DNA from: Holophagales bacterium
GTDB lineage: Bacteria; Acidobacteriota; Thermoanaerobaculia; UBA5066
Reading direction: 5' to 3'
Assembly: GCA_016716705.1 (NCBI GenBank)
Contig: JADJVF010000011.1
Coordinates: 18,687 to 82,686 of the forward strand
DNA: 64,000 nt
The translations under genes were made by a program, and so were the position numbers. Positions 13,035 to 30,302 of this stretch are shown here, one piece after another. Every line of letters begins with the position of its first letter. The first letter of the stretch is position 1. The notes under the pieces were generated by a model. That model did not search any database and was not told the DNA's origin. It saw nothing but the letters and a program-made list of their open reading frames with translations.

Positions 13035-15040
13035 TCAGGGCTTCCGGAGCTTCTCCCGTACGATGGCCCGTTCCTTTCCCGTAGAGGGGGAGACGAGGAC
13101 GCGGACCGTCCGGGGCAGGTAGCCGGGCGCCGTCAGGACGACGTCGTAGACCCTCTGTTCCCTGAACTGCATGTCCTGCGCCTGGAACCGCGACGCGGGG
13201 CCCATGTCGTTCCCGTCCACGAACACGGTCGCGGAGGGGGGCTCCACTTCGACCCGGACGAGGCCGACGGTCTGGTAGTCGGGTCGCGAGATCTTTCCGC
13301 CGGGGCCGGTCGGTCCGTCGGGCGACCCCTTCTCGAGCGAGCGATCGATCTCGACGCGGTCTTCCCCGACGCTCGCCGCGACGACGACGTCGACGTTCAT
13401 GTCCTTGCGGCCGGGGTAGGTCAGCCGGATTCGCTGCCGCCCGTCGGACGTGAAGGTCAGCAGGGATCCGCCTCCGGCGTCGTCCCAGTCGTCCGCAATC
13501 CCGACATAGCGGCCGTTGATGAAGACGCGGGCCTGGGAGGGCGACACGTTCATCTTCACGGACCGGCGGGTGATGTAGGTCTTGTCCGCGGGGATGACCG
13601 GTTGAGGCGTCGGTGTGACCGTGGGCGGCGTCGTCGGCACGGGAGTGGCGGTGTCCGTCGGCTTCGGTCGGGGCGTGCGGGTCGGCACGGGGGTTCGGCC
13701 GCCGGGCGGAGCAATCCCAGCTGTGGCCGGGGTCGCCGTGGGCTCCGGAACGGGGGTCGTTCCCGGCGCGATCGGGGGCGTGACGGGAGCCGTCCCGGGG
13801 TCGGAGCGAGATCCGCACCGGCCTCGGGAGTCGCGGTGGCCGTGGGAACGGGAGCGACCGCGGGGGGAGGGCCGCCCCGCCCGAAGAGGCCCTGTGAGCG
13901 GAGGAAGAAGAAGCCGCCGACGACGATCCCCGCCAGGACGAGCCCTCCGGCGGCCGCCCCGGCCATCGCCGCAGGGCTGTGCTGCGAAGAGGTCGTCGAG
14001 GTCCTCCCGCCGGTCCTCGTCATTCGCCGCGACCCGGAGACGTCGGTCGGAGGTCCGCCGGATGCCGAGACCTGAGTGCCGGTGAGCGCGCGAGGGGACG
14101 TCCCCGCCGGCATCTGCATCGTCGGGGGGGCCGCCACCGCCGCCACCGCGGCCTGCTTTCGCGCCCGGCCGACCTTGCTCTCGGTGAGCCCCGACGTCGA
14201 GACGAGAGGGACGATCCCGATGACGGCCCGGAGGTCGTCGGCCAGCTCCGCTGCGTCTCCGTAGCGCTGCTCGCGGTCCTTGGCGAGGCACTTCAGGGCG
14301 ATCTCGGTGATCTCGGGAGGGAGCTCGCCGTTGTGCACGAGCGGGTCGTCGGGCTCGTTGTTGAGGATCTGGTAGACGAGCGTCGTCAGCGTGTCGGCCG
14401 GGAAGGGCTTCTTCAGCGTCAGCGTCTGGTAGAGGACGACGCCGAGCGAGAAGATGTCGCTCCTCACGTCGAGCTTGTCGCCCCGGATCTGCTCGGGGGA
14501 CATGTAGGCCGGCGAGCCGACCATCTGCCCGGTCGACGTCAGGTCGGTGTCCCCCGTCAGGAGCTTCCCGATTCCGAAGTCGGTCACCTTGGCGACGGAG
14601 GCCTCGGTGAGGAGGATGTTCGCCGGCTTGACGTCGCGGTGGATGACGCCGCGCTGGTGGGCGTGGGCGAGCGCGTCGGCCACCTCGGAGAGGATCCGGA
14701 TCCGCTCGGGAATCGGGAAATCGAGGCCGTCGGTCAGGCGCTGGTTGAGAGCCCCTCCCGAGATGTACTCCATCGCGAGGTAGAGCACGCCCTCGTCCTC
14801 GCCGACGTCGAAGACCGTGACGATGTTCGGGTGCTGCAGCCGCCCCGAGATCTTCGCTTCCTTCAGGAAGCGGGCCTTGGCCTCGGAGACGCTGAAGCTC
14901 TGCGACGGCCCGTCGAACCGGACGGTCTTCAAGGCGAGAGTCCGTTCGATCTGTGGATCGCGCGCGAGGTAGACGACACCCATCGCCCCCTTCCCGAGGG
15001 GGCGCAGGATCTCGTAGCGACCGATCCGGGCTGGATTCAC
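13035..15040 (-). CDS. Hanks-type Ser/Thr protein kinase with TM segment, Pro/Thr/Ala linker and two C-terminal PEGA domains; apparent frameshift near 13780-13808
   Basis: Kinase subdomains (GKGAMGVVY…HRDVKPANILL…DFGIGK…SPAYMSPEQ) in frame 13556-15040. TM helix GGLVLAGIVVGGFFFL. The PEGA-like repeats (KMNVSPSQARVFINGRYVG; RVEVEPPSATVFVDGNDMGP) continue in the +1 frame (13035-14291). The junction is at a C4/G3 homopolymer. Confidence 0.7.
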
Positions 15041-15059
15041 GCCGATTCTGGAATTCTAG

Positions 15060-15392
15060 TCAGTTCGACCCGTTCTCGGTCGGGTCGATCTCGGCGGGGC
15101 CTTCGTCGGTCATGAGGGTCGCCTCCCCCTCGGTGGCCGAGGCGAAGTCATCGTCGCGCTTCTCGAGGCTGGCCGACGCCTCCTCGAAGCGATCCGAAGG
15201 GACCGCGACCTCGATGGCGGCGAGGTCCTCGTCGGCCGGGACGGGGTTCTGCGAGAAGCTCTTGTCGACGAGGCGCGTGGGGATGCCGCGGCTCTCGAGG
15301 AACCCGACGATGAAACTGGCCTCGGACTCCGTCCCGACGGACGCGACCCCGCTCCAGTCCTGCCCGGTGGTTTCCTTCTGCTCGTCGCTCAT
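15060..15392 (-). CDS. DUF2007-like small acidic protein (putative signal-transduction protein)
   Basis: 110 aa. SEASFIVGFLESRGIPTRL…AIEVAVP…FEEA matches the DUF2007 pattern. Confidence 0.4.
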   Translation of the reverse strand: MSDEQKETTGQDWSGVASVGTESEASFIVGFLESRGIPTRLVDKSFSQNPVPADEDLAAIEVAVPSDRFEEASASLEKRDDDFASATEGEATLMTDEGPAEIDPTENGSN

Positions 15393-15551
15393 GGCTCACC
15401 TCGTTCCGCGGAACCGGCCCGCGCCGTGCGTCTGGAGCTGACCGGCTGCCGCGGCTCCAGTATCACCCCTTCCGGGCGGGTCCGAACGCAAAGTTCCGGT
15501 GCGCTCACGGGCCCGGACCCCTCCGGGTCAGGGCTGCAGGCGCACCGCCCG

Positions 15552-15836
15552 TCAGAAGTCCGTCGACTCGAACGCCCGGGAGAGCTGCCTCATCACCGCG
15601 TTCGTCGCCAGCCCGGCGGCGGCCGCGGCGATCGCCTTCCCGCGGTGCCGGCCGATCCAGAACCCGAGGGCGGCGGCGCCGAGCAGGCACGGGACGGGGT
15701 ACTTCCGGACGACGTCGAGGGCGACGTTCTGGAGCTCGAGCCCCCGCTCGAACGCGAACGGCGCCTCGGCCCCCCCGACGGGGCCGTCCGGCGACGCCCC
15801 GTGCGGGGCGGGCGGGCGGATCGTCGGCTCCGACAT
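15552..15836 (-). CDS. small membrane protein (YqjE/DUF1469-like?)
   Basis: 95 aa MSEPTIRPP… with one hydrophobic segment, YPVPCLLGAAALGFWIG. Its ATG (15834-15836 RC) overlaps the upstream stop in an ATGA arrangement. Confidence 0.35.
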   Translation of the reverse strand: MSEPTIRPPAPHGASPDGPVGGAEAPFAFERGLELQNVALDVVRKYPVPCLLGAAALGFWIGRHRGKAIAAAAAGLATNAVMRQLSRAFESTDF

Positions 15837-16114
15837 CAGTCGTCGCTCCGCCGGCGCAGAAGGAGCCCGAGCGCGAAGCCGACGCCGAGGGCGATCGCGA
15901 GCGACTTGCCGGGGTTCTGCCGCACGTAGTCGGTCGCCTTGTCGGTGACCTCGTCCCAGTCCGTGTCGCGGATCTTGTCGCGCAGGGCGCCCGCGCGGCT
16001 CTTCACCCCGTCCGCGACCTCGCCGATCTTCTCCTTGACGCGTCCGCCAAAGCCCTCGCGGGCGGCGTCGATCTTCTCGTCGACCATCTTCGCGGCGTCG
16101 ATCGTTTCGGCCAT
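15836..16114 (-). CDS. DUF883/ElaB/YqjD-family membrane-anchored protein
   Basis: 92 aa with an N-terminal coiled-coil region and a C-terminal anchor, NPGKSLAIALGVGFALGLLLRRR, characteristic of ElaB/YqjD. Confidence 0.55.
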   Translation of the reverse strand: MAETIDAAKMVDEKIDAAREGFGGRVKEKIGEVADGVKSRAGALRDKIRDTDWDEVTDKATDYVRQNPGKSLAIALGVGFALGLLLRRRSDD

Positions 16115-16220
16115 ATGGACCTCCCTTACCAGTAGTCGGAGCTGAATCTTCGCACGGCGGGCAGGCCCCTTCCATCGCGAACGGACGCCCCGGGGCTACG
16201 ATGGAGGGAGGAGGACCCCG

Positions 16221-17609
16221 ATGAAGATCGGCTTTCACGGCGCGGCCCGGACGGTGACCGGCTCGAAGTACCTCCTCACCCTCGACCACTACCGCCTCCT
16301 CGTCGACTGCGGCCTCTTCCAGGGCGGCTTCGAGATGCACCAGCGGAACTGGAGGCCGCTCGCCTTCAGCCCCGCCTCCGTGGACGACGTCCTCTTCACC
16401 CACGCGCACATCGACCACACCGGCTACTTTCCCCGCCTGGCCGCCGACGGCTTCACGGGGCGGGCTCTCGCGACCCCTCCGACGAAAGCCCTCCTCGGGG
16501 TACTTCTCCCCGATTCCGGCGGGCTCCAGGAAGAAGAGGCCCGGTTCGCCAACAAGAAGGGCTTCTCCCGGCACCAGCCTGCGAAGCCCCTCTACACCGA
16601 GGACGACGCGAACCGGTCGCTTCAGCTCCTCCATCGCATGGAGTTCGACCAGGAGACGACGCTCCACAAGGGGCTGAAGGTCAAGCTCCACCGGGCGGGG
16701 CACATCCTGGGGGCCTCCTTCGCCGAGATCCGCTACCGCGACCCGGAGGACGACTGGAAGACCGTCGTCTTCTCCGGCGACCTGGGGCGCCGGGCCGTCC
16801 CGATCCTCCACGACCCCGCCCCGCTCCCCGCCTGCGACGTTCTCGTCTGCGAATCGACGTACGGCGACCGGCTCCACGAGGCGACCGACCCGAAGGAACA
16901 GCTCCGGCGGGAGCTCTCCGACTCCTTCCGGCGCGGCGGCTTCACCGTCATCCCCGCCTTCGCCGTCGGGCGGACGCAGGAGATCCTCTACCACCTCTTC
17001 GAGCTCTTCGAGGAGGGGCGCCTCCCGAAGGTCCCGGTCTACGTCGACTCGCCGATGGCCAACTCCGTCGTCGAGCTCTACTGCCGCTACCGCTCCGAGC
17101 ACGACGTCGAGATGCAGGAGCTGGAGGACAACGTCGGCTCTCCGCTTCAGACGCCCTACTTCACGGTCGTGAGAAAGCGGGACGAGTCGAAGAAGCTGAA
17201 CGACCTCCCCGGACCCGGCATCGTCATCTCCGCCTCGGGCATGGCCACGGGCGGGCGCGTCCTGCACCACCTCCTCCACCGCCTGCCCGACGCGCGGAAC
17301 ACCGTCCTCTTCGTCGGGTACCAGGCCGAGGGGTCGCTCGGGCGGCGCCTCCTGGAAGGGGAGACCGACGTGACGGTCCTCGGCGAGGGTCTCACCGTGA
17401 AGGCGGCGATCAAGAAGATCCCGGCCCTCTCGGCGCACGCCGACGCCAACGAGATCATCGCGTGGATAAAGTCCGCGCCGACGCCGCCGAAGCGCGTCTA
17501 CCTGACCCACGGCGAGCCGGCCGCGCAGGACACCTTCGCCGCCCGCCTCCGGTCGGAGCTCGGCCTTCTCGTCCACGTCCCCGAGCCCGACGACGTCGTG
17601 GAGGTCTGA
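16221..17609 (+). CDS. MBL-fold beta-CASP ribonuclease (RNA-metabolising metallo-beta-lactamase)
   Basis: ATG at 16221 with GGAGGGAGGAGG just upstream. Metallo-beta-lactamase motif HAHIDHTG, then beta-CASP motifs. Confidence 0.8.
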   Translation: MKIGFHGAARTVTGSKYLLTLDHYRLLVDCGLFQGGFEMHQRNWRPLAFSPASVDDVLFTHAHIDHTGYFPRLAADGFTGRALATPPTKALLGVLLPDSGGLQEEEARFANKKGFSRHQPAKPLYTEDDANRSLQLLHRMEFDQETTLHKGLKVKLHRAGHILGASFAEIRYRDPEDDWKTVVFSGDLGRRAVPILHDPAPLPACDVLVCESTYGDRLHEATDPKEQLRRELSDSFRRGGFTVIPAFAVGRTQEILYHLFELFEEGRLPKVPVYVDSPMANSVVELYCRYRSEHDVEMQELEDNVGSPLQTPYFTVVRKRDESKKLNDLPGPGIVISASGMATGGRVLHHLLHRLPDARNTVLFVGYQAEGSLGRRLLEGETDVTVLGEGLTVKAAIKKIPALSAHADANEIIAWIKSAPTPPKRVYLTHGEPAAQDTFAARLRSELGLLVHVPEPDDVVEV

Positions 17610-17691
17610 CCTGGGCCGCGGGACCGGGGCCTTCCCCGTCCGCGCCCCCGAGCTGAAGGGGATCGGGCGGGCGATCGCGCTCGCCTGGGTC

Positions 17692-19068
17692 GTGCTTCGC
17701 AGGAGCGTGAAGTCGTTCCTCGACGGACGCGGCGTGGGGCTCGCCGCCGGCCTCGCCTACTCGTCGCTCCTCTCGTTCATCCCGCTCGTCGTCGCGGTCA
17801 CGGTCCTCACCTCGACCTTCTTCGGCGAGCGGGGGACGGGCTTCTTCAGGCTCCTCCGCTTCTTCGTACCCGGCACCTCGCGCGAGGTCCTCAGGGGCGT
17901 GGAGGCGCTCGTCGACGAGGCCCAGGCGGCCTCCTGGGTGGCGACCGCGCTCCTCGTCCTCACGTCGCTGCGCGTCTACTTCGACGTCGAAGGGGCCGCG
18001 AACCACCTCTGGGGAACCCTCCGGCCGAGGCGGGTGAGCCAGCGGTTCGCCCTCGCCGTCCTCGTCGTCGTCTTCGGGCCGGTGGCCCTCGGGGTCGCGA
18101 CCTCGTTTCTCCTCGAAGCGGGCGTCCCCCTGACGCAGCTCCACCTGCGCGGTCTCTTCGCGTCGATCTTCGCCCTGACCCTGATCTACAAGGTCGTCCC
18201 GTCGGCCCAGGTCCGCTGGGGCGCGGCCGCAGCGGCCGGTGTCCTCGCGGGCGCAGGGCTGACCGGACTGAGGCAGCTCTTCACCCTCGGGTTCGTCGCC
18301 GCCGCCGGCGCCGCGAAGGTCTACGGCACGATCAGCGCCATCGCCGTCTTCGTGACGGCCACCGGCTTCGCCTGGACGATCCTCCTCTTCGGCTTCTCGT
18401 TCGCGCACGCCGTCCAGTTCCGCGACGAGCTCCTCGCCCACGACGCCCCGCCGCCCGCGGCGAAGAAGCCGGGGGCGCTCGAGGAGGCGGTGCAGCTCCT
18501 CCTCCGCCTCACCGAGGCGTGGCACGCGGGCGTCTCCCTGGACATCCCTTCTCTGGCCCAGGCCTGCGGCCGCGCCGCCGACGACCTCAGGTCCCGTCTC
18601 AAGCGCCTCGGCACCGCCGGGCTCGTGGACGTGACGGGCGAGAGCGTCCGCCTGGCGCGTCCTCCCGACACGATCACCCTTTACGCCGTGGCCCGCGCCG
18701 TCGGCGAAGCGGCGCCGCGTGCGGTCCCCACGGGTTCCGAGCCGGCCGCAGCGATCCTCCGCGCCCTCTACATGCGCGCCGACGCCGAAGAGCGGGGCGT
18801 CCTGCAGGGAACCAGCCTCGAGGACGTCTATCGCCCGCACGCCCGCCGTCGATCCGAAAGCGAAGATGCCAGCGACCTTCGTCTCGGTCCGTCCGAGGCG
18901 GCGCAGGTCCGGCGAGGGACCGGGCACGGGGCGGGGCACGGCTCCGGGGTTCACCCCGTCAGCCCCGCGAGTCCCGAGAACGGAACAGCTCTCTGTACGG
19001 ATGACGGTGGCGACGGGAAGCCGGTGGACGGCTCCACTCCGAACGGCTCCCCAAACGGCTCCGATTGA
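17692..19068 (+). CDS. YihY/BrkB family inner-membrane protein
   Basis: GTG at 17692. N-terminal GLAYSSLLSFIPLVVA and six or more TM segments typical of YihY/BrkB, plus a long hydrophilic C-terminal tail. Confidence 0.7.
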   Translation: MLRRSVKSFLDGRGVGLAAGLAYSSLLSFIPLVVAVTVLTSTFFGERGTGFFRLLRFFVPGTSREVLRGVEALVDEAQAASWVATALLVLTSLRVYFDVEGAANHLWGTLRPRRVSQRFALAVLVVVFGPVALGVATSFLLEAGVPLTQLHLRGLFASIFALTLIYKVVPSAQVRWGAAAAAGVLAGAGLTGLRQLFTLGFVAAAGAAKVYGTISAIAVFVTATGFAWTILLFGFSFAHAVQFRDELLAHDAPPPAAKKPGALEEAVQLLLRLTEAWHAGVSLDIPSLAQACGRAADDLRSRLKRLGTAGLVDVTGESVRLARPPDTITLYAVARAVGEAAPRAVPTGSEPAAAILRALYMRADAEERGVLQGTSLEDVYRPHARRRSESEDASDLRLGPSEAAQVRRGTGHGAGHGSGVHPVSPASPENGTALCTDDGGDGKPVDGSTPNGSPNGSD

Positions 19069-19108: not shown

Positions 19109-19184
19109 GGGGCTGTAGCTCAGCTGGGAGAGCGCTAGAATCGCACTCTAGAGGTCGGGAGTTCGATCCTCCTCAGCTCCACCA
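19109..19184 (+). tRNA. tRNA-Ala (anticodon CGC)
   Basis: 76 nt GGGGCTGTAGCTCAGCTGGGAGAGCGCTAGAATCGCACTCTAGAGGTCGGGAGTTCGATCCTCCTCAGCTCCACCA. The cloverleaf folds. The G3:U70 Ala identity pair is present. Anticodon loop AT-CGC-AC. CCA is encoded. Confidence 0.9.
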
Positions 19185-19202
19185 TTTATTTCGAAGAGCA
19201 CA

Positions 19203-19233
19203 GGCCGCGGGTCTCCCCCCGCGGCTGTTTCGT
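19203..19233 (+). terminator. rho-independent terminator after tRNA-Ala
   Basis: Stem gccgcggg / cccgcggc, loop tctcc, then TGTTTCGTT. Confidence 0.6.
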
Positions 19234-19316
19234 TCAGGGCCTGAGGTTGCGAGGTCGGAATCCCTCCCGCCCGGGCGGGCCGGAGGACCGGCCCGCCTTC
19301 GGCGCGAGGGCGGTTT

Positions 19317-21389
19317 TCAGAACGTCGCCGCGGCCCCCATGGCGAACGTCCGTCCCTGGCCCGGGAAGCCCGCTTCGCTCTCGTAGTCGGCGTCGAGGAG
19401 ATTCCGAATCGCCACGTGGGCCCGAATCCCCTTCACCACCTCCTGCGTGACCTTCGCCCCGAGGAGGACGTAGCCGTCGATCTCCTTGACGGGGTCGTTC
19501 GGGTAGATGGGCGACGGGAGGCTCGTGTACATCGACCCGACGTAGACGGCGTCGAGGTCGAGGAGCGTCTTCGGACCCGGCACCGTGTACGACGCGAGGA
19601 AGCCCGCCTTGTGGGCAGGAACGTTCGTCACGTCGTCCGTGACGCGCCCCTCGCTCTGGTCGGCGGAATGGACGTAGGTGTAGTCCGCGCGCAGGGTGAG
19701 ATCCGGGACGGGGGTGACCTCGACGACCGTCTCGAAGCCGGCCATCCGGACCTGCCCGATGTTCTGGTAGATGTTCAGGCTGCCCGACCCGTTCCGCGAG
19801 ATCAGGTTCCGGACGTCGTAGTAGAAGCCGCCGAGCTCCAGCCGCACGGTCGCCCCGAGCGGATGGGAGACGCTGACGGTCGTGTTGAGGCTCTTCTCGG
19901 ACTCGAGCGCCGTGTTCCCGTTCTTCGTCGAGTAGAGCTGCGAGAGGGTCGGGAACCGGCTCTTGCGCGCGATCGCGGCGTTCACGACAGTCCCGGAGGT
20001 CCCACGCCAGACGAGTCCCGCCATCGGGTTGACCTGCGAGTCGCTGGGCGTCGCGAGCGGGTCCTGGCGGACGAAGTCACCGGTCGAGCCGTCCGTCACG
20101 TTGCGGTTCGCGTTCGAGACGTCGAACCAGTCGAAGGAGACGCCCCCGACCGCCGAAAGACCCTTCGAGAAGGTCATCGCGTCCTCGAGCCCGACCGATC
20201 CGGTGATCGAGCTCGACTCGGCGAACGGAAGGTAGGCGTCGTCGCGCTCGCGGTGCGTGTCGTCCTTCAGGTGCGCCGAGAAGCGCAGGGTGTTCGAGGT
20301 CGCCACCTGCCACTCGCCGAGGAGGTTGCCCCCCGCGAGAGTGTCGTCGTAGCGGCTCACGGCGATCTGCTCGCGGTGCTCCGCGTCCTTGTACGAGACG
20401 AGGTCGTCGACGTGCTCGTGGTAGAAGCCCTTCGCCTTGAGCGTCAGTCCCGGGGCGAGCTGGTGCCTGCCGTCGAGATCGACACCGAGGTCGCGGTACG
20501 TCGGGATCTCGTTGAACTGGGAGAACGCGGGCCGCTTCAGGAAGACCTGCACGCTGTCGGTCGAAGGGGGGACGCCCTTGTCGCGGTCGAAGTAGTGGAG
20601 GTTGAGGAAGAGCGCGGACGCGGAGGAGGGCTCCCAGCCCACCTTTCCCCAGGCGTTCAGCGACCGGGTGTCGGAGCTCTCCCGTTTCCCGCCGTCCTCC
20701 AGGACCGCCGGAGTCGTCTTGCTCGGGTTCTTCTGGACGATCGTCCCGACCTTCGGCTCGTAGGAGCCGGAGACCGGCGTTCCGCCGCTCGTCTCCCCCG
20801 AGACGTTCAGCCAGTAGCTGAGCGCGCCGTGCCGCTGGCCGTGCGTCGCGGAGAATCGGCCGGTGGCCCAGTCGCCTCCCTCGGCCCGGATCTCGGTGTG
20901 CGGCGTCGTGCCGGCGGTCTTGCTGATGATGTTGATGGTTCCGCCGAGGGCGTTCGCGCCGCTCAGCACCGAGGCGGCCCCCTTCGTGATCTCGATCCGG
21001 GCGACGTTGTCGGTCGGGATCTGCGCGAGGTCGAGCTTGCCGTAGTTCGTCTCGTAGTACGGGACGCCGTCGATCAGGACCTGGACGCGGCTCTGGTCGA
21101 AGCCGTGGACGTAGACCGTCGGCTCGTTCTTCCGGCCGGTCGAGACGCGGAGGCCCGGGACGTTCGCGAGCGCCTCGGCGACGTTCTTCGCGTTGCGGGC
21201 CGCGATCTCCTCGGCCGTCACGGCGACGGTCAGGGCGGTCTCGTCGACCCTGTCCGCCTCGGCGGTCACGGTGACGCGGGCGAGAGCGTAGGCCTCGTAG
21301 CTCGGGGTCGGGTCCTCCGCCCGGGCGGACAGCGAGGAAAGGCCGATGCACGGCAGGAACAGGACGAGGAGACGGTATGCCTTGTTCAC
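19317..21389 (-). CDS. TonB-dependent outer-membrane receptor
   Basis: GTG at 21389 (RC) with GGAGGA 4 nt upstream. Signal peptide VNKAYRLLVLFLPCIGLSSLSARA. Plug-domain motifs (…TGRKNEPTVYVHGFDQSRVQVLIDGVPY…). Beta-barrel with a C-terminal aromatic (…GAAATF). Confidence 0.85.
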   Translation of the reverse strand: MNKAYRLLVLFLPCIGLSSLSARAEDPTPSYEAYALARVTVTAEADRVDETALTVAVTAEEIAARNAKNVAEALANVPGLRVSTGRKNEPTVYVHGFDQSRVQVLIDGVPYYETNYGKLDLAQIPTDNVARIEITKGAASVLSGANALGGTINIISKTAGTTPHTEIRAEGGDWATGRFSATHGQRHGALSYWLNVSGETSGGTPVSGSYEPKVGTIVQKNPSKTTPAVLEDGGKRESSDTRSLNAWGKVGWEPSSASALFLNLHYFDRDKGVPPSTDSVQVFLKRPAFSQFNEIPTYRDLGVDLDGRHQLAPGLTLKAKGFYHEHVDDLVSYKDAEHREQIAVSRYDDTLAGGNLLGEWQVATSNTLRFSAHLKDDTHRERDDAYLPFAESSSITGSVGLEDAMTFSKGLSAVGGVSFDWFDVSNANRNVTDGSTGDFVRQDPLATPSDSQVNPMAGLVWRGTSGTVVNAAIARKSRFPTLSQLYSTKNGNTALESEKSLNTTVSVSHPLGATVRLELGGFYYDVRNLISRNGSGSLNIYQNIGQVRMAGFETVVEVTPVPDLTLRADYTYVHSADQSEGRVTDDVTNVPAHKAGFLASYTVPGPKTLLDLDAVYVGSMYTSLPSPIYPNDPVKEIDGYVLLGAKVTQEVVKGIRAHVAIRNLLDADYESEAGFPGQGRTFAMGAAATF

Positions 21390-21476
21390 GGGTCCTCCGT
21401 TCGAATTCGGCGTCCGCGCCCGCCCTTCGGATTCCGCCGGGAACCTGCGAAACTGGCGCGTCGCCGTGGAAGTGAC

Positions 21477-21866
21477 GTGTTGAAGCCGTCGAAGAAGCCG
21501 GGAACCGAACGCCCGGCCCCGAGCCCCGCCCGGCTGAAGCCGAGGTTCCGGGTCCTGCGGGACGGCGAAGTCCTCGTCGGACCGGGGATGGTGGAGCTTC
21601 TCGAAGCGATCCGGCGCACGGGGAGCCTGCGGGTCGCCGCCAGCGAGCTGCAGATGTCCTACATGCACGCCTGGGGCCTCGTGAAGACGATGAACCAGGC
21701 GTTCCGGAGCCCGCTCGTGGAGCTCTCGCGCGGCGGCGCCCAGCGGGGAGGCGCCCTCCTCAGCGCGTGCGGCGAGGAGGTGCTCGCCCTCTACCGGGTG
21801 ATGGAGGCCGAAGCCCAGCGCGCCGTAGCGAGGCACTGGCGGCGCCTGAAGCGCCTCCTCTCCTGA
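21477..21866 (+). CDS. ModE N-terminal-domain-like winged-HTH regulator (short; no TOBE/Mop domain)
   Basis: GTG 21477 or TTG 21480. GPGMVELLEAIRRTGSLRVAASELQMSYMHAWGLVKTMNQAF…GGAQRGGALLSACG aligns with E. coli ModE residues about 20-90 (GSISQGAKDAGISYKSAWDAINEMN…GGKGGGGA). Ends at 21866. Confidence 0.6.
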   Translation: MLKPSKKPGTERPAPSPARLKPRFRVLRDGEVLVGPGMVELLEAIRRTGSLRVAASELQMSYMHAWGLVKTMNQAFRSPLVELSRGGAQRGGALLSACGEEVLALYRVMEAEAQRAVARHWRRLKRLLS

Positions 21867-22064
21867 CCCCGGAAGGCCCGACGACTCCTCCGCGACGAAC
21901 GCCAAGCCGATCTATTCTATAGAAGATATCGGAGCCGGGGCCCCGCGCGGTCGAGGCGAGAACGGGCGGAGGGCGAAGGCCCGGTCTGCCCCTCCCCGCC
22001 TCGTTCTCCGGACTGAAACAACCGCCTCGTTGCGAGTTTCGCCACTCCTCGGCAAGATGGCGCG

Positions 22065-23129
22065 ATGAGAAGTCTCGTGGTCCTGCCTCTCCTCGTCGGC
22101 ACCCTCCTCGCCGGTTGCTCGAAGCCTTCCGGGGGGGAGAAGGGTCCGGCGGCCCTCGTCGCGACGCAGGACCCGAAGGCGGTCGTGGCCCGCGTGGACG
22201 GCTCTCCCATCACCGAGGGCGAGCTGATGGTCGAGGCGAGGGCGTCGATGGCGGCGGCCGAGAAGCAGTTCCTCGAGGCGGTCCACGCGCAGAAGGTCCG
22301 CGCGCTCGACCGGCTCGTGGAGAAACGGCTCCTCGAGACCCGGGCGAAGAAGGAAGGGATCACGGTCGAGGTACTCCTCGACCGTGAGGTCGTCCGCAAG
22401 GTCCCCGAGCCCGCCGAGGCGATCCTGCAGGCGGTCTACGACCAGACGAAATCCACCGGGCGCCCGCTCCCGCCGTTCGCCGAGGTGAAGGCCGAGATCG
22501 CCGCCTTCGTGAAGGGACAGTCGGCGCAGGAGACCCACCAGGGGTTCATCGCGCGGCTCCGCGCCGAGTCCAGGGTCGAGAGCCTCCTGCCCCCCCTCCT
22601 GCTCCCGAAGGTCGTCTTCACGGCGGACGGCCCGTCCCGCGGCGCGGCCGGGGCCGCGGTGACGATCGTCGAGTTCTCGGACTACGAGTGCGGGTTCTGC
22701 GGCCAGGCGGAAGAGGTGGTCCGCAGGGTGATCGCCGAGTACAAGGGGCAGGTCCGCCTCGTCCACCAGGCGTTCCCGCTGGCGGGGCACCCTCGCGCCC
22801 CCAAGGCGGCCGAGGCGGCGCTCTGCGCCGGAGAGCAGGGCCGGTACTGGGAGATGCACGATCTTCTCTTCGCGGGCCAGGGGGCGCTCGGGATCGACGA
22901 CCTGAAGGGGCGCGCCCGAACGCTCCAGCTCGACGCGCCGCGGTTCGACGCCTGCCTCGACTCGGGCCGGATGGCGCCCGTCGTCGAAAAGAGCCGGAAG
23001 CTCGGAGAGGGAATCGGGGTGGACGCCACCCCGGCCTTCTTCGTCAACGGCCGACCCCTCTCCGGGATGCAGCCGTTCGAGCGGTTCAAGGAGCTCGTCG
23101 ACCACGAGCTGGCGAACCCGGGCCGCTGA
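22065..23129 (+). CDS. lipoprotein: SurA-N-like chaperone domain fused to DsbA-family thiol:disulfide oxidoreductase
   Basis: ATG at 22065. Lipobox LLAGC. N-terminal SurA_N-like segment. Thioredoxin-fold active site EFSDYECGFCGQ and a cis-Pro region VDATPAFFVNG, typical of DsbA. Confidence 0.7.
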   Translation: MRSLVVLPLLVGTLLAGCSKPSGGEKGPAALVATQDPKAVVARVDGSPITEGELMVEARASMAAAEKQFLEAVHAQKVRALDRLVEKRLLETRAKKEGITVEVLLDREVVRKVPEPAEAILQAVYDQTKSTGRPLPPFAEVKAEIAAFVKGQSAQETHQGFIARLRAESRVESLLPPLLLPKVVFTADGPSRGAAGAAVTIVEFSDYECGFCGQAEEVVRRVIAEYKGQVRLVHQAFPLAGHPRAPKAAEAALCAGEQGRYWEMHDLLFAGQGALGIDDLKGRARTLQLDAPRFDACLDSGRMAPVVEKSRKLGEGIGVDATPAFFVNGRPLSGMQPFERFKELVDHELANPGR

Positions 23130-23302
23130 CGCAGGAGCCGGATTCCCTTTCGCCGGGAAGCCGGCCCTTGCTGGTCCTCAATTTGCGCACCTGTCTCACC
23201 TCGGGGCACCGAGGGGAATTTGCTTTCCGTACGTGCGGAAACGCGTGATAGCGGACTAGAATCGGCCGCTTCACATTTCCTCAAGAGGAGGGCTTCGTTT
23301 AC

Positions 23303-26300
23303 ATGAGAGAAGAGGCAAGAGGACATTCCCGGGGCATCGTCCCCATCGCGGCAGCGGCCCTGGGAGCGGCGCTGCTCATCGGGGCCGGCACCGCCCAGGC
23401 TGGCGTCAAGTATCTCGGTGACGGGGCCGTCCAGAACGCCCGCGGAGGCTGGGACCTTCCCAAGCAGGGAGCCTGCCCGGCCGACCTGACGGCCAAGACC
23501 CGTCCCGACTGCGTTGCGCGCCGGTTCGTCGCCAAGGACTCGGCGGCCTGCACGGCGCTCGGCGCCAGCGGCGCCTACTCCTGGAGCACCGGCGTCTGCA
23601 ACGACCTCGTCAACAAGACCGAGGCCGCCTGCAAGGCGTCCACGGACCGCTACTGGAACGCCGCCGCCAGCGTCTGCGCCGTCGTGATGCAGGACGACGA
23701 CCGCAACGCGATCAACTGCGCCCAGCACGGTGGCACGTGGGTCACGGCCGGTAACTGCACGGCCGCGTGGGTCATGCCGGCCCGGGACGACTCGTCCTAC
23801 GGCGCAGGCGGGCTGCTCACGTCCAACGGCGCGGGCGACCAGTGCCTTCGCTGCCACAACACCGTGACCCAGTACAACGGGCCTCGCGTCCGCGACACGA
23901 ACTTCACGCTGATGCAGGGCCACAAGAACATGGCCCGGCCCGTCGACGCCGCCTTCAAGCCCTGGGGCGGGCCGCCGTTCTCCTGCACGGGCAAGGCGAC
24001 GGCCACCGACGAGCACGAGTGCGTCGCCGCCGGCGGGACGTGGGACCCGACGATCTACCCCGCCGACGACTCCGGGAACACCATCAACTGGACCAAGAAC
24101 ACCATCACCACGAGCGCCGGGACCTTCGACCTCAAGTGGATCTACGGCGACTGGCTCGGCCCGCTCCCCCGCGCGATCTACACGGGGGCCACGCTCAACA
24201 ACATGAGCTACTCGTGCGGCCGCTGCCACACGACCGGCTGGACGAGCGACGCGGGGACGACCCCGAACGCGAAGAAGCACCCCGAGCTGGACTTCCCGGG
24301 CATCACCTGGAACGGCACCGGGACGACCGGCCAGGTCAAGCTGGGCGGCGGCGTCGCGGGCGACAAGAACGTCATGTCCTCGTGGGACCAGTGGGGCATC
24401 ACCTGCTCGCGCTGCCACAGCAGCGCCGTCGACGACGCGACCTCGGGGCCGCCCTACAGCGCCCCGGCGGGCATGTCGACCCACCACAACGCCCTCACGA
24501 GCCCGAACGCCAACAACGGCGCCTGTACCGACGTCCGCTGGTCGAGCGCTCCCTCGGGCTCCACTCTCGAAGCCGCCTGCAATTCCACCGGCGGCACGTT
24601 CCTGACGGCCTGCAGCGTCAACCCGACCCCGGGTGTCTGCACGGCGGCCGCGAATACGAAGGACAAGTGCACGGCGGTCGCCGGCACCTGGGTGGCCGCG
24701 AAGGCCGGCTGGTGCAGCAACGCGTTCTACGGCGACTCGGCGAGCTGCACGGCGAACAAGTACACGTGGACCGACGGCTGGTGCAAGACGGCCGACGCCC
24801 AGGCCGCCTGCACGGGCGGTACCGGCGACGCCGCCAAGACCTGGCGCGCCAACGGCAGCCAGGCTTCATGCCAGGTGGCCGGCGCGGCCTGGACCTTCTC
24901 GAAGTGCACGGTCGAGGGCTACTGCAGCGCCGGGACCTGCAGCGACGTGAAGTACACGAACCAGAGGGACTGCACCGAGGCGGGCAAGACCTGGTGGGCC
25001 ATCCGGTCGAAGTCGGCCTGCGACACGGTCGGCGGTCAGTTCGCCTACGCGACCGACGTCGTCACCTGCGGTGACGCCGGCGGCCGGTGGTTCGGGAACA
25101 ACACGAACCGCGGCCAGATCATCACGTCGGTCTGCATGGACTGCCACCGCCAGGAGACGAGCGGCCTCCCGAACACGAACGGCAGCTGCAGCGACGGCAA
25201 GACGACGACGCAGGGCGCCTGCGTCGCCGCCGGCGCGACCTGGACCGAGACGGGTAACGGCCTGCCGGTCACGGTCGGCCCGTACCACAACACCGTCACG
25301 TTCCCGAGCCACCCGGCCGGCAACCAGTTCCTCAACAGCCCGCACGCCAAGTTCAGCGGCAAGTGGAGCGATATCGCGTCGGGCAAATACGACGGCTCGT
25401 CCGCCGGCAAGTACCAGAGCTCCTTCATGGCCCTCGGCGAGGCCTCCGGCACGGGCAACGGCTGCACGGGCTGCCACGAGATCCACACGAGCATCGTGGT
25501 CGGCGAGAAGCCCTTCCGCGAAGAGTGCAACACCTGCCACCACGTGAAGAACCTCGAGCACCTCATGCACCCGGCGGGCCACGGAACGCCGCTCGAGAAG
25601 GCGGAAGAGGACCCGATGGAAGCCTGCGTCATGTGCCACATGCCGGAGGGGCAGCACCTCTTCCGGATCAGCACCGACGCGGCCTACTCGACCTTCCCGC
25701 CCGCGCAGGCGATGACCGCCAACACGTCGGCGAACACCGCCCCCGACGGCAGCTACACGAACGCCGTCTGGGTCGACCTCGACGCCGCCTGCGGCCAGTG
25801 CCACGGCGGCGGCGCGGCGAACGCGAAGACGACCGGCACCATCGCGACGGGCTCGGCCGCCCTCACGGTCGCGAGCACGACCGGGCTCGCCGTCGGCGAG
25901 CGGATCAACGTCGCCGGAGCGGGCGCGTTCGCCAAGTCGGGCTCCTGGTACGACCTCCACACCTACGTCAAGGCGATCGCGGGCAACGTCGTCACGCTCG
26001 CCGGCACCGCGACCCACGGCGTCACGAACGCCGCGGTCACGCAGAACCCGACGACGAACGGCGCGAGCTACGTGACCAAGGCGAACCTCGCCGTCCTACG
26101 CGAAGGGAATCCACAACGACAGCCCGGAGGCGAGATTCACGGTGAAGCAGGGAGCCAACGAGCTGACGGTCGCGGTCGATGCCTCCGGTACCAAGTGCCG
26201 CGGCAGCGCCGCGAACTGCGGCGCCTTCGACTGGAACTGGGGCGACAACACCGCGCACGGTTCCGGCAAGACGGCGACGCACACCTACGCCGCTCCGGGC

Positions 26301-26678
26301 AACTACACCATCACCCTGACGGTCGAGGACGAGGAGACGGGCACGGGCAGCGCCACCCAGACCTTCGCCGCCAAGGCGATCCCCGGGGCGCCCACCGTGA
26401 CCGGCACCTGCACGCCCGACTACCCGAAGGCGAGCGTGAGCTGCGCGGTGACCGTGCCCACCGGGGGCTACGCGAGCGTATCCGTCTACTTCGGTGAGGG
26501 CTATAACGTGGACAAGGTCAGCAACCCGGCCGCCGGAACGCTGACCATGACCCACACCTACCAGCAGTTCGACAACTACACGATCATGGCGACGGCCACC
26601 AACGCCGCCGGCCAGTCGACGACGGCTCCGATCGGGTTCATGGCCCGGGGCCTGTTCGTCAACGACAAGAACAGGTAG
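23303..26678 (+). CDS. secreted multihaem c-type cytochrome (8 CxxCH) with a Cys-rich GGTW repeat array and C-terminal PKD domain; apparent frameshift near 26076-26141
   Basis: ATG at 23303, RBS AAGAGGAGGG. Signal peptide. Haem motifs CLRCH, CGRCH, CSRCH, CMDCH, CTGCH, CNTCH, CVMCH, CGQCH. The PKD motif FDWNWGDNTAHGSGKTATHTYAAPGNYTITLTVED lies in the +1 frame, which opens after TGA 26073-26075. GGAGG lies 11 nt before GTG 26142, so a separate PKD ORF is possible. Confidence 0.7.
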
Positions 26679-26962
26679 ATCGTCACGGGGAGGGGCCGGC
26701 GGGGACTCCCGCCGGCCCTCCATCGCAATCCAAGGGGTTCAGGGGCCGCAATCGCGGCCCCTTCTTTTCGGTGCAGCCGCCCGACCTGTCGGAATAGGGC
26801 AGTAAGCAGGCCCGCCCCTCGAGAGCCCTCGAAAGTTCTTGCGTGGGATCTCGAGAGGAGCGACACTACCGTGTAACAGGACCATTTCGGGCCGCATTTC
26901 ACCGGCAAAAGGTGTATGCGGCCCGAAGTGTTTTCAGGGTGCCTAACGAGAAGGAGGGTCAT

Positions 26963-28926
26963 ATGCGGGTACGGCTGATCGTGTATTTCGGGGTGGTTCT
27001 TGCGGTGCTCCTCCTGGCCCTCATTCCGGGCGCGGCGGTCTCCCCCACGGGGTGGACCGTCGTCGCCTGGAACAACCTCGGGATGCACTGCATGGACGCC
27101 GACTTCAGCGTCTTCGCCATCCTGCCGCCCTACAACACGATCCAGGCGCACGTCGTCGACGCTTCCGGAAAGCTCGTGAAGAGCTCGTCGTCCGTCACGG
27201 TGACGTACGAGGCCGTCGCCGACCCGACCGGCTCCATCAACACGACGTCGCAGGGCAAGACGAACTTCTGGGACCACGTCGTGGCGCTGTTCGGCGCGTC
27301 GCTACCTGTCGACGCGGGGCTCGCGGGGAAGGACATGCCGGGGTCCTCGAACGCGCCAAAGCCGATGACGTTCGATGCCTCGAAGAACTGGTTCATCGCC
27401 GAGGGGATCCCGATCACCCCGTACGACGACGCGGGGAACAAGAATCCCTACCCGATGATGAAGGTGACGGCCCGTGACACCTCGGGCAACGTCCTCTCGT
27501 CCACTCGCATCGTCCTTCCCGTCTCCGACGAGATGGACTGCCGGACCTGCCACGCCTCCGGCTCGCCCATCGACGCCCGGCCGGCCGCGGGCTGGGTCTT
27601 CGACCCGGACCCCGAGCGGGACTACCGCCTGAACGTCCTCCGGCTCCACGACGAGGCGGCCGCCTCGAGCCCGGCGTATGCGCCCGCCCTCGCGGCGGCC
27701 GGGTACGACCCAGCGGGCCTCTACGCCAATGTCACGGTCCGGGGAAAGCCGATCCTCTGCGCCGCGTGCCACGCCTCCGAGGCGCTCCCCGGCAGCGGCC
27801 AGGCCGGCATCCCGCCGCTCACCCAGGCCGTTCACGCCCGGCACGCGGGGGTCAACGACCCGACGAACGGGCAGCCCCTCGGCTCCTCCACGAACCGGTC
27901 GGCCTGCTACCGCTGCCACCCCGGCTCGGAGACGAAGTGCCTGCGCGGGGCGATGGGAGCGGCGACGGCGGCCGACGGCTCGATGCTCATGCAATGCCAG
28001 GACTGCCACGGCCTGATGGCGGCGGTCGGTGCGACGACGCGCACGGGCTGGTTCGACGAGCCCACCTGCCAGCAGTGCCACACCGGTACGGCGACGAAGA
28101 ACTCCGGCCAGATCCGCTTCACGTCCGTCTTTGACGGGGACGGCAATCCCCGCGTCGCCGCCGACGCGCGCTTCGCGACGAACGTCGACACGCCCGCCGC
28201 GGGCCTCTCTCTCTACCGGTTCTCGAAGGGGCACGGCGGCCTGCAGTGCGCGGCGTGCCACGGATCGACGCACGCGGAATACCCCTCCTCCCACGTGAAC
28301 GACAACCTCCAGAGCCTCGACCTGCAGGGGCACGCGGGGACGATCGGCGAGTGCGCCGCCTGCCACGGCGGGAACGTCCCGCAGACCGTCTCCGGGGTCC
28401 TCACGGGATGCACCCGGTCGGCTCGTCGTGGGTCGACAGGCACGAAGACGCGGCCGAGGGCAGCCTCGCCTCCTGCCGCACCTGTCACGGCGCAGACGAT
28501 CGCGGGACCGTCCTCTCTCGCGGGTTCGCCGAGCGGACCCTGAAGACGAGGGCCGGTACGAAGACCTTTGCCGCCGGCACGACGTTCGGCTGCTACACCT
28601 GCCACAACGGACCGGACGGCGAGGGGAACCCTCCGGGCGGTGGAACGCCGACCCCCACTCCGACCCCCCGCGTGACCGCGACGCCAGGTCCTACGACCAC
28701 GCCGACCGTCAGGCCCACGAGGACCGCGACCCCGGGCTGGACTTCGACGCCCACCCGGACGCCGACCCGGACTCCGACCGTCCGGCCGACGAGGACACCG
28801 ACGCCTACCCGCCCTCCGCGGTCGACCGCCACCCCCACGCCGACCCGCCGGCCGCGACACGACGGGGACAGCCCGCTCCCCGTGGGTGACCCGGGAGTCG
28901 CGGGACCGGTCCCGATCCGGCGCTGA
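26963..28926 (+). CDS. secreted multihaem c-type cytochrome (7+2 CxxCH) with C-terminal Pro/Thr-repeat tail; apparent frameshift near 28376-28415
   Basis: ATG at 26963 with AAGGAGGG. Signal peptide [27 protein letters not shown]. Haem motifs CRTCH, CAACH x3, CYRCH, CQDCH, CQQCH in frame A. CRTCHGA and CYTCHNG, then (T/R)PT repeats, in the -1 frame, which ends at 28926. Confidence 0.7.
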
Positions 28927-28955: not shown

Positions 28956-29525
28956 TCAGCCGAAGCTGAGCGCGGCGAGAACGAGGCAGGCCGACAGCCG
29001 GGCGGCGATGGCCCGGACGGTGGTGAGGTTCCGGAACGTGGCGCGCAGCCCGAGCGCCTTCTCGAGCTTCCCTCCCGAGAAGTCCGAGTCGGACGAGCGG
29101 ATGCGGCAGAGCCACCAGACTTCGCGCCCGCTCACCGCGAGCTCGTCGGTCGGCGTCCGGAACCCGTGGACGAGGGCATGCTGTTCGGGGCTCGGCGGTT
29201 CCTTCAGGAACCCGACGTAGACCCCCTGGGCCTCGCCGACGTCCTCGGCGGCGAACGGCTCGTGCGCGGCGACGGCCGAGAGCTCGGCGGGCGTGCGGAG
29301 GAACGTCGCCACCTCCCAGCCGAGCGCCGCCTCCAGCCTCTTCTCGATCTTCGCCTCGAGCGTCGCGGCCCGTCCCCGTCCCGCCGTGAAGAGGACGTTC
29401 CCGCTCGCGATGTGGGTCGAGACGCCCGTGAAGCCGGTCTCCTCGAAGAGCTGCCGCAGCCTCTCCATCTTCACGACGCGGCCGCCGACGTTCACGGCGC
29501 GGAGGAAGGCGGCGTACCGGGGCAC
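28956..29525 (-). CDS. DUF1697 family protein
   Basis: 189 aa MPRYAAFLRAVNVGGRVVKME… matches the DUF1697 N-terminal signature. A 29-nt hairpin (28948-28976) overlaps its stop codon. Confidence 0.65.
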   Translation of the reverse strand: MPRYAAFLRAVNVGGRVVKMERLRQLFEETGFTGVSTHIASGNVLFTAGRGRAATLEAKIEKRLEAALGWEVATFLRTPAELSAVAAHEPFAAEDVGEAQGVYVGFLKEPPSPEQHALVHGFRTPTDELAVSGREVWWLCRIRSSDSDFSGGKLEKALGLRATFRNLTTVRAIAARLSACLVLAALSFG

Positions 29526-29579: not shown

Positions 29580-30302
29580 TCAGCCCGCGGCGCCGAAGAG
29601 CATCCCTGCCGCCGCCGTGACCGCCATGGCGACCGCCCCCCAGAACGTGACCCGTCCCGAGCCGACGAGGACGGAGGCTCCGCCGACCCGGGCCGCGAGG
29701 GCGCCAAGCCCCGCCAGGAGAACGAGAGTCGTGCCGACCATGACGGGGACGAGCTGGGCCCGCGGAACCAGGGCGACCGTGAGGACGGGAAGGGCGGCCC
29801 CCACCGCGAAGCTCGCGGCGGAGGCGAGCGCAGCCTGGAGCGGCCGGGCGGCGGTGAGGTCGTGGATCCCGAGCTCGTCGCGGGCGTGCGCGCCGAGGGC
29901 GTCGTGCGCCATGAGCTGCTCGGCGACCCGGGCGGCCAGCTCGGAGTCGAGGCCGCGGGCGACGTAGATGCCGGCCAGCTCGGCGCGCTCCCCGTGCTCG
30001 TCGGTGGCCAGCTCGCCGCGCTCGCGCTCGAGATCGGCCCGCTCCGTGTCGGACTGGGAGCTGACCGAGACGTACTCGCCGGCCGCCATCGACATCGCGC
30101 CGGCCAGGAGGCCGGCGACGGCCGAGACGATGATCGATTGGGGAGCGGCCCCGGCCGCGGCGACGCCGACGACGAGGCTGGCGGTGGAGATGAGTCCGTC
30201 GTTCGCCCCGAGGACGGAGGCGCGGAGCCATCCGATGCGGTCGCTTCGGTGAAGCTCGCGGTGGCGCGAATACCGGGCCGGTGTGAAGGACGAGGCGTGC
30301 AT
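29580..30302 (-). CDS. VIT1/CCC1 family iron/manganese transporter
   Basis: WLRASVLGANDGLISTASLVVGVAAA signature, an acidic helical cytoplasmic domain and five TM segments. Confidence 0.8.
   Translation of the reverse strand: MHASSFTPARYSRHRELHRSDRIGWLRASVLGANDGLISTASLVVGVAAAGAAPQSIIVSAVAGLLAGAMSMAAGEYVSVSSQSDTERADLERERGELATDEHGERAELAGIYVARGLDSELAARVAEQLMAHDALGAHARDELGIHDLTAARPLQAALASAASFAVGAALPVLTVALVPRAQLVPVMVGTTLVLLAGLGALAARVGGASVLVGSGRVTFWGAVAMAVTAAAGMLFGAAG

Follow-up and report, generated by a model that had tools for sequence, protein, structure and literature searches.

The genes described here lie in a 64-kb stretch of DNA from a Holophagales bacterium (GenBank assembly GCA_016716705.1, contig JADJVF010000011.1, positions 18,687 to 82,686), which we call the window in its whole length. 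Its composition is about 70% G+C across, and homologue searches with g2 and g3 (below) placed its nearest relatives among metagenome-assembled genomes (MAGs) of Acidobacteriota labelled Thermoanaerobaculia or 'Holophagales'. Three co-directional genes, g1 (22065-23129), g2 (23303-26678) and g3 (26963-28926), encode a predicted lipoprotein with SurA_N-like and DsbA-like domains and two predicted secreted multihaem c-type cytochromes. An initial annotation, made from the letters alone, had given these positions, with which the listing of open reading frames (ORFs) agrees, and had read the genes as one redox module; the intervals that it gave as 174 and about 285 bp are short as it said but measure 173 bp (g1-g2) and 284 bp (g2-g3). 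Both cytochromes combine several CxxCH motifs with an N-terminal signal sequence, the combination expected of multihaem c-type proteins (haem attachment is predicted), and the 64-kb window holds no other CxxCH-bearing ORF. Below, L numbers denote the stretches of relatives' DNA that were compared with the window, and P numbers denote relatives' proteins.

The larger cytochrome gene, g2, is split in the assembly into two overlapping ORFs in different frames (23303-26497 and 26142-26678), with one extra base relative to L003, L009 and L012 at a +1 frameshift site (26091-26096, + strand). The 5' part (23303-26095, +) encodes a Sec signal (…TAQA|G), eight CxxCH motifs (nt 23843-25804) and about 12 Cys-bearing helix-hairpin modules; the 3' part, in the next frame (26097-26678, +), encodes a PKD domain (approximately nt 26160-26369) and a second PKD-like beta domain before the stop codon at 26676-26678. 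The repaired protein has 1,124 aa, equal in length to a 93%-identical relative (P0001), and contains 48 Cys, 32 of them non-haem, and C-terminal PKD domains, which are recognized both by a PKD/PKD_4 Pfam match above threshold and by a PKD fold. The eight haem motifs, the dozens of extra Cys and the PKD domain noted initially therefore stand, on counts that bridge the frameshift, but the single ORF does not; the loose haem spacing also described fits g2, in which successive CxxCH motifs are 21-243 aa apart. Pfam, NCBIfam and solved structures gave no match to the haem region, structural matches being limited to the PKD/FN3 part, and the source annotation of g2 homologues reads only 'PKD domain-containing' or 'carboxypeptidase regulatory-like'. 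An alignment of 50 sequences shows no variation in any of the eight CxxCH motifs or in at least eight further His, and of the 32 non-haem Cys, 21 are either invariant or conserved to 90% or more. These extra Cys are located in recurring C-x3-4-GG-x-W modules, which appear in the AlphaFold2 (AF2) model as a helix plus beta-hairpin, and because 32 Cys lie outside the haem motifs, up to 16 disulfides would be possible. With 201 matches, nearly all full length and nearly all MAG-derived, g2 appears to represent an uncharacterised family of secreted octahaem cytochromes of about 1,100-1,300 aa. BLASTP found no significant match between g2 and g3, and a paralogous relationship between them was rejected on this ground.

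The assembly also splits g3 into overlapping ORFs in different frames (26843-28543 and 28246-28926). A base is missing at 28396, within a -1 frameshift site (28395-28398, +) that reads GGGG in the window and GGTGG in L003; alignments to L009, L012 and L007 show this uncompensated 1-bp gap as well. The 5' part (26963-28397, +) encodes a signal/anchor helix, an Ig-like beta-sandwich domain with an invariant WNxLGMHCxD motif and haem motifs 1-7, and the 3' part, in the -1 frame (28397-28926, +), encodes haem motifs 8-9 (nt 28474-28605) and a TPT-rich tail (28636-28926). When repaired, g3 has 654 aa, nine CxxCH motifs and a (T/R)PT-rich tail of about 95 aa, as first described except that these counts, too, run across a frameshift rather than along one ORF. 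Eighteen of its 20 Cys belong to CxxCH motifs, which leaves two non-haem Cys. The loose haem spacing proposed for both proteins does not hold for g3, whose motifs are 24-73 aa apart; at about 62 aa per haem without the tail, its haem density equals that of MtrC, a decahaem protein (626-residue chain, taken as 10 haems). In the family alignment, four CxxCH motifs are invariant and the other five are at least 90% conserved, and at least 11 additional His are invariant or near-invariant, enough for bis-His ligation of all nine haems. The family comprises 5,898 matches in a word-indexed search and 569 clusters at 50% identity (E<=1e-30) in an exhaustive search, and identity is 60-70% across Acidobacteriota and Binatia. 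The core of about 525 aa is found at either end or in the middle of proteins as long as 1,738 aa (e.g., P0377, P0385, P0394 and P0404), accompanied by PKD, cadherin/Ig-like, SLH or low-complexity tails; because these positions vary, the core suggests a mobile 'Ig-like plus nonahaem' domain cassette.

For the haem core of g3, we found neither a Pfam or NCBIfam model above cut-off nor a sequence relative with a solved structure. The earlier statement that the cytochromes resemble no named family is thus upheld for both haem cores in these libraries, but it has to be qualified by weak and consistent OmcA/MtrC signals in g3. With the g3 ORF of the window itself, PF22113 reached 29.0 (cut-off 30), TIGR03507 gave a partial match of 23.9 against a cut-off of 209.3 with P0122 (92% identical to g3), and the top Foldseek match was MtrC (4LM8, E 3e-3), the query being a moderate model with a poorly modelled haem half. 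These signals agree, although none reaches a membership threshold, and g3 is probably distantly MtrC/OmcA-like. In g3, as in OmcA and MtrC of Shewanella (PF22113, TIGR03507; PDB 4LM8, 4LMH), a beta-rich domain at the N-terminus precedes closely spaced CxxCH motifs of similar density, and the tails in the g3 family are of cell-surface type. Unlike OmcA and MtrC, g3 has nine haems (5 + 4) instead of ten, one confident beta domain instead of the two of MtrC, and neither a lipobox nor a Cys in its signal peptide; it misses all curated cut-offs, lacks the two pentahaem domains alternating with two beta-barrel domains by which the family is defined, and has no adjoining mtrA/mtrB-type genes, and its core of about 525 aa shows, as a module, far stronger conservation and a wider distribution. 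The (T/R)PT-rich stretch of g3 resembles that of PgcA, an extracellular trihaem lipoprotein of Geobacter sulfurreducens whose TPTx repeats have been proposed to bind Fe(III) oxides. In PgcA, however, the repeats lie between haem motifs and not in a C-terminal tail, and the haem part of this three-haem lipoprotein has no sequence homology to g3.

The first gene, g1 (22065-23129, +), encodes 354 aa with matches above cut-off to Thioredoxin_4 (PF13462; E 1.6e-24, 87.4 bits) and DSBA (PF01323; E 3.2e-18, 66.6 bits) and a marginal pass of SurA_N_3 (PF13624; 27.6 bits, cut-off 27.2). It has a lipobox (LLAG-C18), a CxxC active site (C209-G-F-C212, nt 22689-22700) and a 'DATPAF' loop with Thr-Pro where the cis-Pro loop is expected, so that all DsbA-type hallmarks (thioredoxin-family match, CxxC, cis-Pro-position loop and export signal) are present; the sole matching NCBIfam model, the Rcas_1661 family, remains below its cut-off (105 vs 190 bits). 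These features bear out the initial description of a lipoprotein thiol oxidase with a SurA-like domain, and we predict that g1 is a periplasmic thiol oxidase/holdase. The family has 1,583 matches, and most of the 120 homologues listed share the two-domain architecture; judged from these sequences, SurA_N plus DsbA is a widespread family and no special fusion. g1 resembles other DsbA-family/Thioredoxin_4 lipoproteins with a SurA_N-like extension in its CxxC, Thr-Pro, lipobox and two above-threshold domains, and differs from them in its score below the Rcas_1661 cut-off and in lying repeatedly next to genes for cytochromes and a haem-sensor kinase, an arrangement for which the literature searches made found no published description. 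A 58%-identical g1 homologue (L128 8001-14495; also L129) lies beside genes for two c7-type multihaem cytochromes, a NapC/NirT-like cytochrome and a tandem-rotamase peptidyl-prolyl isomerase, which is a second, different cytochrome context for the DsbA-fusion family. Another g1 homologue has no cytochrome neighbour. Since the architecture is common and its neighbour contexts are mixed, a functional tie between g1 and the Cys-rich cytochromes is plausible without being exclusive, and we consider the chances to be even.

The three genes behave differently when their order is followed through the relatives. g2 and g3 are adjacent only in L003 and L009, the two nearest relatives, which keep the order g1-g2-g3-DUF1697-VIT1. 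In L012, approximately 4.7 kb of unrelated ORFs (13385-18080) separates g2 from g3, which marks the g2/g3 junction as a rearrangement site; in GCA_046331465.1, the two genes are on different contigs, and in all five of the more distant loci (L007, L008, L125, L126 and L127), g3 occurs without g2, with g3-DUF1697-VIT1 retained in L007. The co-occurrence of a three-gene unit across related genomes, which the module proposal implied, is consequently not observed. g1, on the other hand, is linked to g2 in 11 of the 13 distinct loci with a g2 at least 55% identical: it is directly upstream of or divergent from g2 in seven (L003, L009, L010, L012, L014, L017 and L046), and in four (L013, L018, L019 and L054) only a histidine kinase, an NtrC-type sigma-54 activator and a small receiver protein are encoded between them. 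Two lineages (L001/L011 and L004/L005) lack g1 at the g2 locus. When searched from g1, six further contigs have g1 followed by the kinase gene, four of these also with the activator gene before the contig ends, and in L049, L050 and L055, the match to g1 and that to the kinase share 8 nt. The g1-g2 linkage across the clade is genuine.

Predicted expression signals around g2 likewise point to separate units. After g2 lie two G+C-rich hairpins (26688-26772, +), detected by sequence and a terminator scan; the second (26741-26762) is followed by TCTTTT and is likely an intrinsic terminator. Upstream, a candidate -10 box, TAGAAT (23257-23262, +), lies in the conserved g2 leader; among the upstream regions compared, the box is shared by the window, L003, L009, L010, L001 and L004, with TACAAT in L012, and it is conserved in relatives that have no two-component system. 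The leader at 23270-23302 (+), …ATTTCCTCAAGAGGAGGGCTTCGTTTACATG, immediately before the g2 start, hardly varies from one g2 locus to another, including loci with different promoters. A fold in which its CCTC pairs with the GGAGG ribosome-binding site is possible, so that the leader may be a translational control element. A sigma-54 promoter before the window's g2 was considered and rejected: the only match, TGGTCCTCAATTTGC (23172-23186), has two mismatches and is kept only in L003 and L009, and such two-mismatch matches number 25 across the window against 27 expected. The canonical motif GGCAC-N5-TTGC does occur 67-69 nt before the g2 start in all four activator-carrying loci examined (L013, L016, L018 and L019).

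Upstream of many g2 homologues, the kinase, NtrC-type activator and receiver genes form a set (L013 6251-9660; L018, L019, L024-L026, L029, L042, L044 and L049-L056). The sensor region at the N-terminus of the kinase (e.g., L013 6251-7840) contains a single CxxCH, which all 16 of 16 homologues of full length retain, and with this region placed in the periplasm by eye, the set looks like a haem-based redox sensor controlling the cytochrome cluster. It is absent from the window, whose clade has lost kinase, activator and small receiver from this locus and carries the TAGAAT leader instead. In about 20 loci with a g2 at most 56% identical, a fixed series of genes extends over about 10 kb downstream of g2 (L016 8466-17946, with the same order in L006/L021, L017, L022-L025, L027-L034, L037 and L042). 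It encodes, in order, a 4-haem protein, an NHL propeller, a 5-haem protein, a candidate beta-barrel of about 600 aa, a second NHL protein, a 10/11-haem MtrC/MtrF-domain protein and a 13-haem DmsE/MtrA-like protein; the protein of about 600 aa has no Pfam match and ends in …RRLLF, as is typical of outer-membrane barrels. This arrangement appears to have the logic of a porin-cytochrome conduit, with a candidate beta-barrel and a periplasmic multihaem partner that we found in distant g2 loci only and not in the window. The possibility that g3 is a relic of the 10-haem gene of this cluster was not supported, BLASTP giving only E 0.002 over 91 aa.

Published NHL-containing porin-cytochrome clusters, namely DFE_448-451 and DFE_461-465 of Desulfovibrio ferrophilus and EET1/EET2 of peat Acidobacteriota, can be compared with these loci by description only. 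The distant g2 clusters resemble them in their small periplasmic cytochromes, NHL propellers, candidate barrel, MtrC-domain protein and MtrA/DmsE-like 13-haem protein. None of the partner genes occurs in the window, and the published descriptions mention neither an octahaem protein of the g2 type with Cys modules and PKD domains nor control by a haem kinase and sigma-54. For the g2 and g3 families themselves, our literature search found no published description, the nearest being general surveys.

Taken together, these findings lead us to explain g1-g2-g3 as three envelope genes, each expressed separately, that came together recently and by chance, and not as a dedicated module, and we assign a probability of about 0.6 to this explanation as a whole. 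In it, g1, as a member of the widespread SurA_N plus DsbA lipoprotein family, would introduce disulfides into exported proteins and might in particular aid the folding of g2, in which about a dozen small Cys-bearing helix-hairpin modules are dispersed through the haem core and surface domains of the PKD type come after it. In most relatives, g2 would open a cluster that has a sigma-54 promoter and encodes porin-cytochrome-like parts, and because it heads a conduit-like cluster there, we infer that it is an outer, extracellular electron-transfer component. In the window's clade, the locus would have lost the conduit genes together with those for the sensor kinase and the sigma-54 activator, which brought g1 directly upstream of g2 and gave g2 a new upstream region. 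g3 would normally stand alone as an Ig-like plus nine-haem module of about 525 aa with variable surface tails and would have become a neighbour of g2 only in the nearest relatives. Both g2 and g3 are probably secreted electron-transfer cytochromes, likely acting outside the cell, where they might pass electrons to insoluble or extracellular acceptors.

The initial annotation had instead proposed a co-transcribed redox module in which the DsbA-chaperone fusion folds both cytochromes, which act together, possibly with iron handling linked to VIT1. The shared direction and short gaps of the three genes, the conserved g1-g2 linkage within the clade, the 32 non-haem Cys of g2, the other g1 homologue beside different cytochromes in L128/L129 and the order maintained through VIT1 in L003 and L009 are all compatible with such a module. 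We nevertheless consider it very improbable, since outside the two nearest relatives no locus links g3 to g2, one genome has them on separate contigs, the g3 family is about 30 times as large as that of g2 (5,898 vs 201 matches in word-indexed searches), and g3 has only two non-haem Cys. A terminator-like hairpin with a T-run after g2, a separate and conserved g2 leader and an unconserved gene order also argue against a single operon. What survives of the role proposed for the fusion is the g1-g2 linkage together with the conserved Cys of g2. The suggested link to VIT1 finds no support, as VIT1 is convergent to g3 on the opposite strand, a DUF1697 gene lies between them, and the two are syntenic in close relatives only.

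A different objection to three functional envelope genes is that g2 and g3 are genuine pseudogenes, decaying after the lineage lost the sensor system and the conduit genes. Both frameshifts are specific to the window when compared with four relatives (L003, L009, L012 and L007), all other 1-bp gaps within the coding sequence being compensated alignment artefacts, and comparison with more distant relatives shows that the locus has indeed already lost the kinase-activator-receiver set and the downstream cluster. Just a single lesion affects each cytochrome gene, however, the restored frames contain no stop codon, the repaired proteins are 92-98% identical to intact relatives, and g2 is intact in close relatives with the same reduced locus (L003, L009, L010 and L012). 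Moreover, an unrelated Kef-type Na+/H+ exchanger/TrkA gene (49588-51571, +) is also split, near 50.12-50.14 kb, with Na_H_Exchanger profile positions 5-165 in ORF 49588-50772 and positions 172-369 in ORF 50135-51571, which points to frameshifts as a general property of this assembly. A probable outer-membrane beta-barrel gene at 48436-49586 (+) looks frameshifted too: ORF 48436-49560 turns into Arg/Ser-rich nonsense, and ORF 49368-49586 ends in the typical …GAALRF. With at least one unrelated gene affected and a single lesion in each cytochrome gene, the frameshifts are most likely assembly errors, at about 4:1 over real pseudogenisation, and decay is unlikely. Programmed frameshifting was rejected, as all relatives are in frame at both sites and no slippery heptamer was seen. 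For g3 alone, one may also imagine an enzyme rather than a wire, namely a multihaem oxidoreductase with a soluble substrate (peroxide, or an oxyanion of N or S), which would account for its strong conservation and stand-alone genes. The 60-70% identity across phyla, the 569 clusters at 50% identity, the invariant WNxLGMHCxD in the non-haem N-terminal domain and the monocistronic genes in varied contexts would suit this idea, but searches of the PDB and the family libraries matched g3 to no enzyme of the NrfA, HAO, OTR or MccA type, either by sequence or by profile, its only family signals are those of OmcA/MtrC, the tails of its relatives are surface-anchoring domain types, and the at least 11 conserved extra His would suffice for nine bis-His haems. 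An enzymatic role for g3 seems to us very improbable.

Several points weigh against our explanation of the locus. The frameshifts could be real, in which case both cytochrome genes would be dead in this genome, and with 1,583 family matches and one homologue without a cytochrome neighbour, g1 may simply be the general DsbA of the cell. Extracellular localisation of g2 and g3 is deduced from domain types only, and both families are known from sequences and models alone. The models are of limited quality, with a predicted local distance difference test (pLDDT) score of 72.8 for g2 (moderate) and 61.5 for g3, in which the haem half is poorly modelled, and the similarity of g3 to MtrC lies below every curated threshold. 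Finally, the 64-kb window encodes neither a porin nor a periplasmic cytochrome, so that an electron route to g2 and g3 finds no support among its genes.

Extracellular multihaem cytochromes are an already known kind of protein, within which the g2 and g3 families appear as uncharacterised members. As the initial annotation held, they are not housekeeping respiratory components. Acidobacteriota are abundant in soils, sediments and wastewater sludge, and their respiration of iron, manganese and humic substances is largely deduced from CxxCH counts. The present comparison defines two large conserved cytochrome families hitherto annotated only as 'PKD domain' or 'Ig-like domain' proteins and ties the g2 family to a regulated porin-cytochrome-like cluster, which could provide markers and targets for extracellular electron transfer in this phylum. 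For the window itself, the significance is modest, as the supposed module is an accident of neighbourhood and the genes as assembled are frameshifted; the more interesting biology, a conduit headed by g2 homologues and apparently controlled by a haem sensor and sigma-54, is in the relatives. We speculate that g2-type proteins might represent a structurally new class among extracellular cytochromes, in which about 16 disulfides in repeated helix-hairpin modules brace a chain of eight haems, and might form the outermost element of an undescribed Thermoanaerobaculia/Binatia conduit that a periplasmic c-haem sensor kinase sets through a sigma-54 activator; g1 would then be a dedicated oxidative-folding factor for the g2-type proteins, and the nonahaem modules of the g3 type would act independently as another surface reductase, of very wide distribution. 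What was observed for this proposal is confined to the gene level, namely conserved motifs and Cys, gene orders, the conserved CxxCH of the kinase and the sigma-54 motif; its structural, regulatory and functional parts are conjecture, and as a whole we hold it to be tentative and rather doubtful.

The surroundings of g1-g2-g3 consist of genes for a TonB receptor, a helix-turn-helix (HTH) protein, DUF1697 and VIT1, according to Pfam. The DUF1697 gene (28956-29525, - strand) sits between g3 and VIT1 (29580-30302, -). A segment that differs among close relatives (about 19.2-26.9 kb; 19200-26860) starts directly after a tRNA-Ala(CGC) gene (19109-19184, +), which forms its left edge; the window's alignments to L003 and L007 end at about 19196-19198, just past this tRNA. 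Where the window has the TonB receptor and HTH genes, L003 has an SNase-like gene, and in L007, an MNT/HepT toxin-antitoxin pair replaces the whole block from the TonB receptor gene through g2. A tRNA-linked integrative island carrying g1-g2 was not supported: no att-like repeat was found around the variable segment, the 3' end of the tRNA is not repeated, and no integrase was present among the segment's ORFs scanned. Immediately upstream of the tRNA, a gene at 17692-19068 (+) encodes a BrkB-type membrane domain fused to an Rrf2-like regulator domain, the latter scoring 29.5 bits against a cut-off of 30, and the same BrkB/Rrf2 gene is also found in L007.

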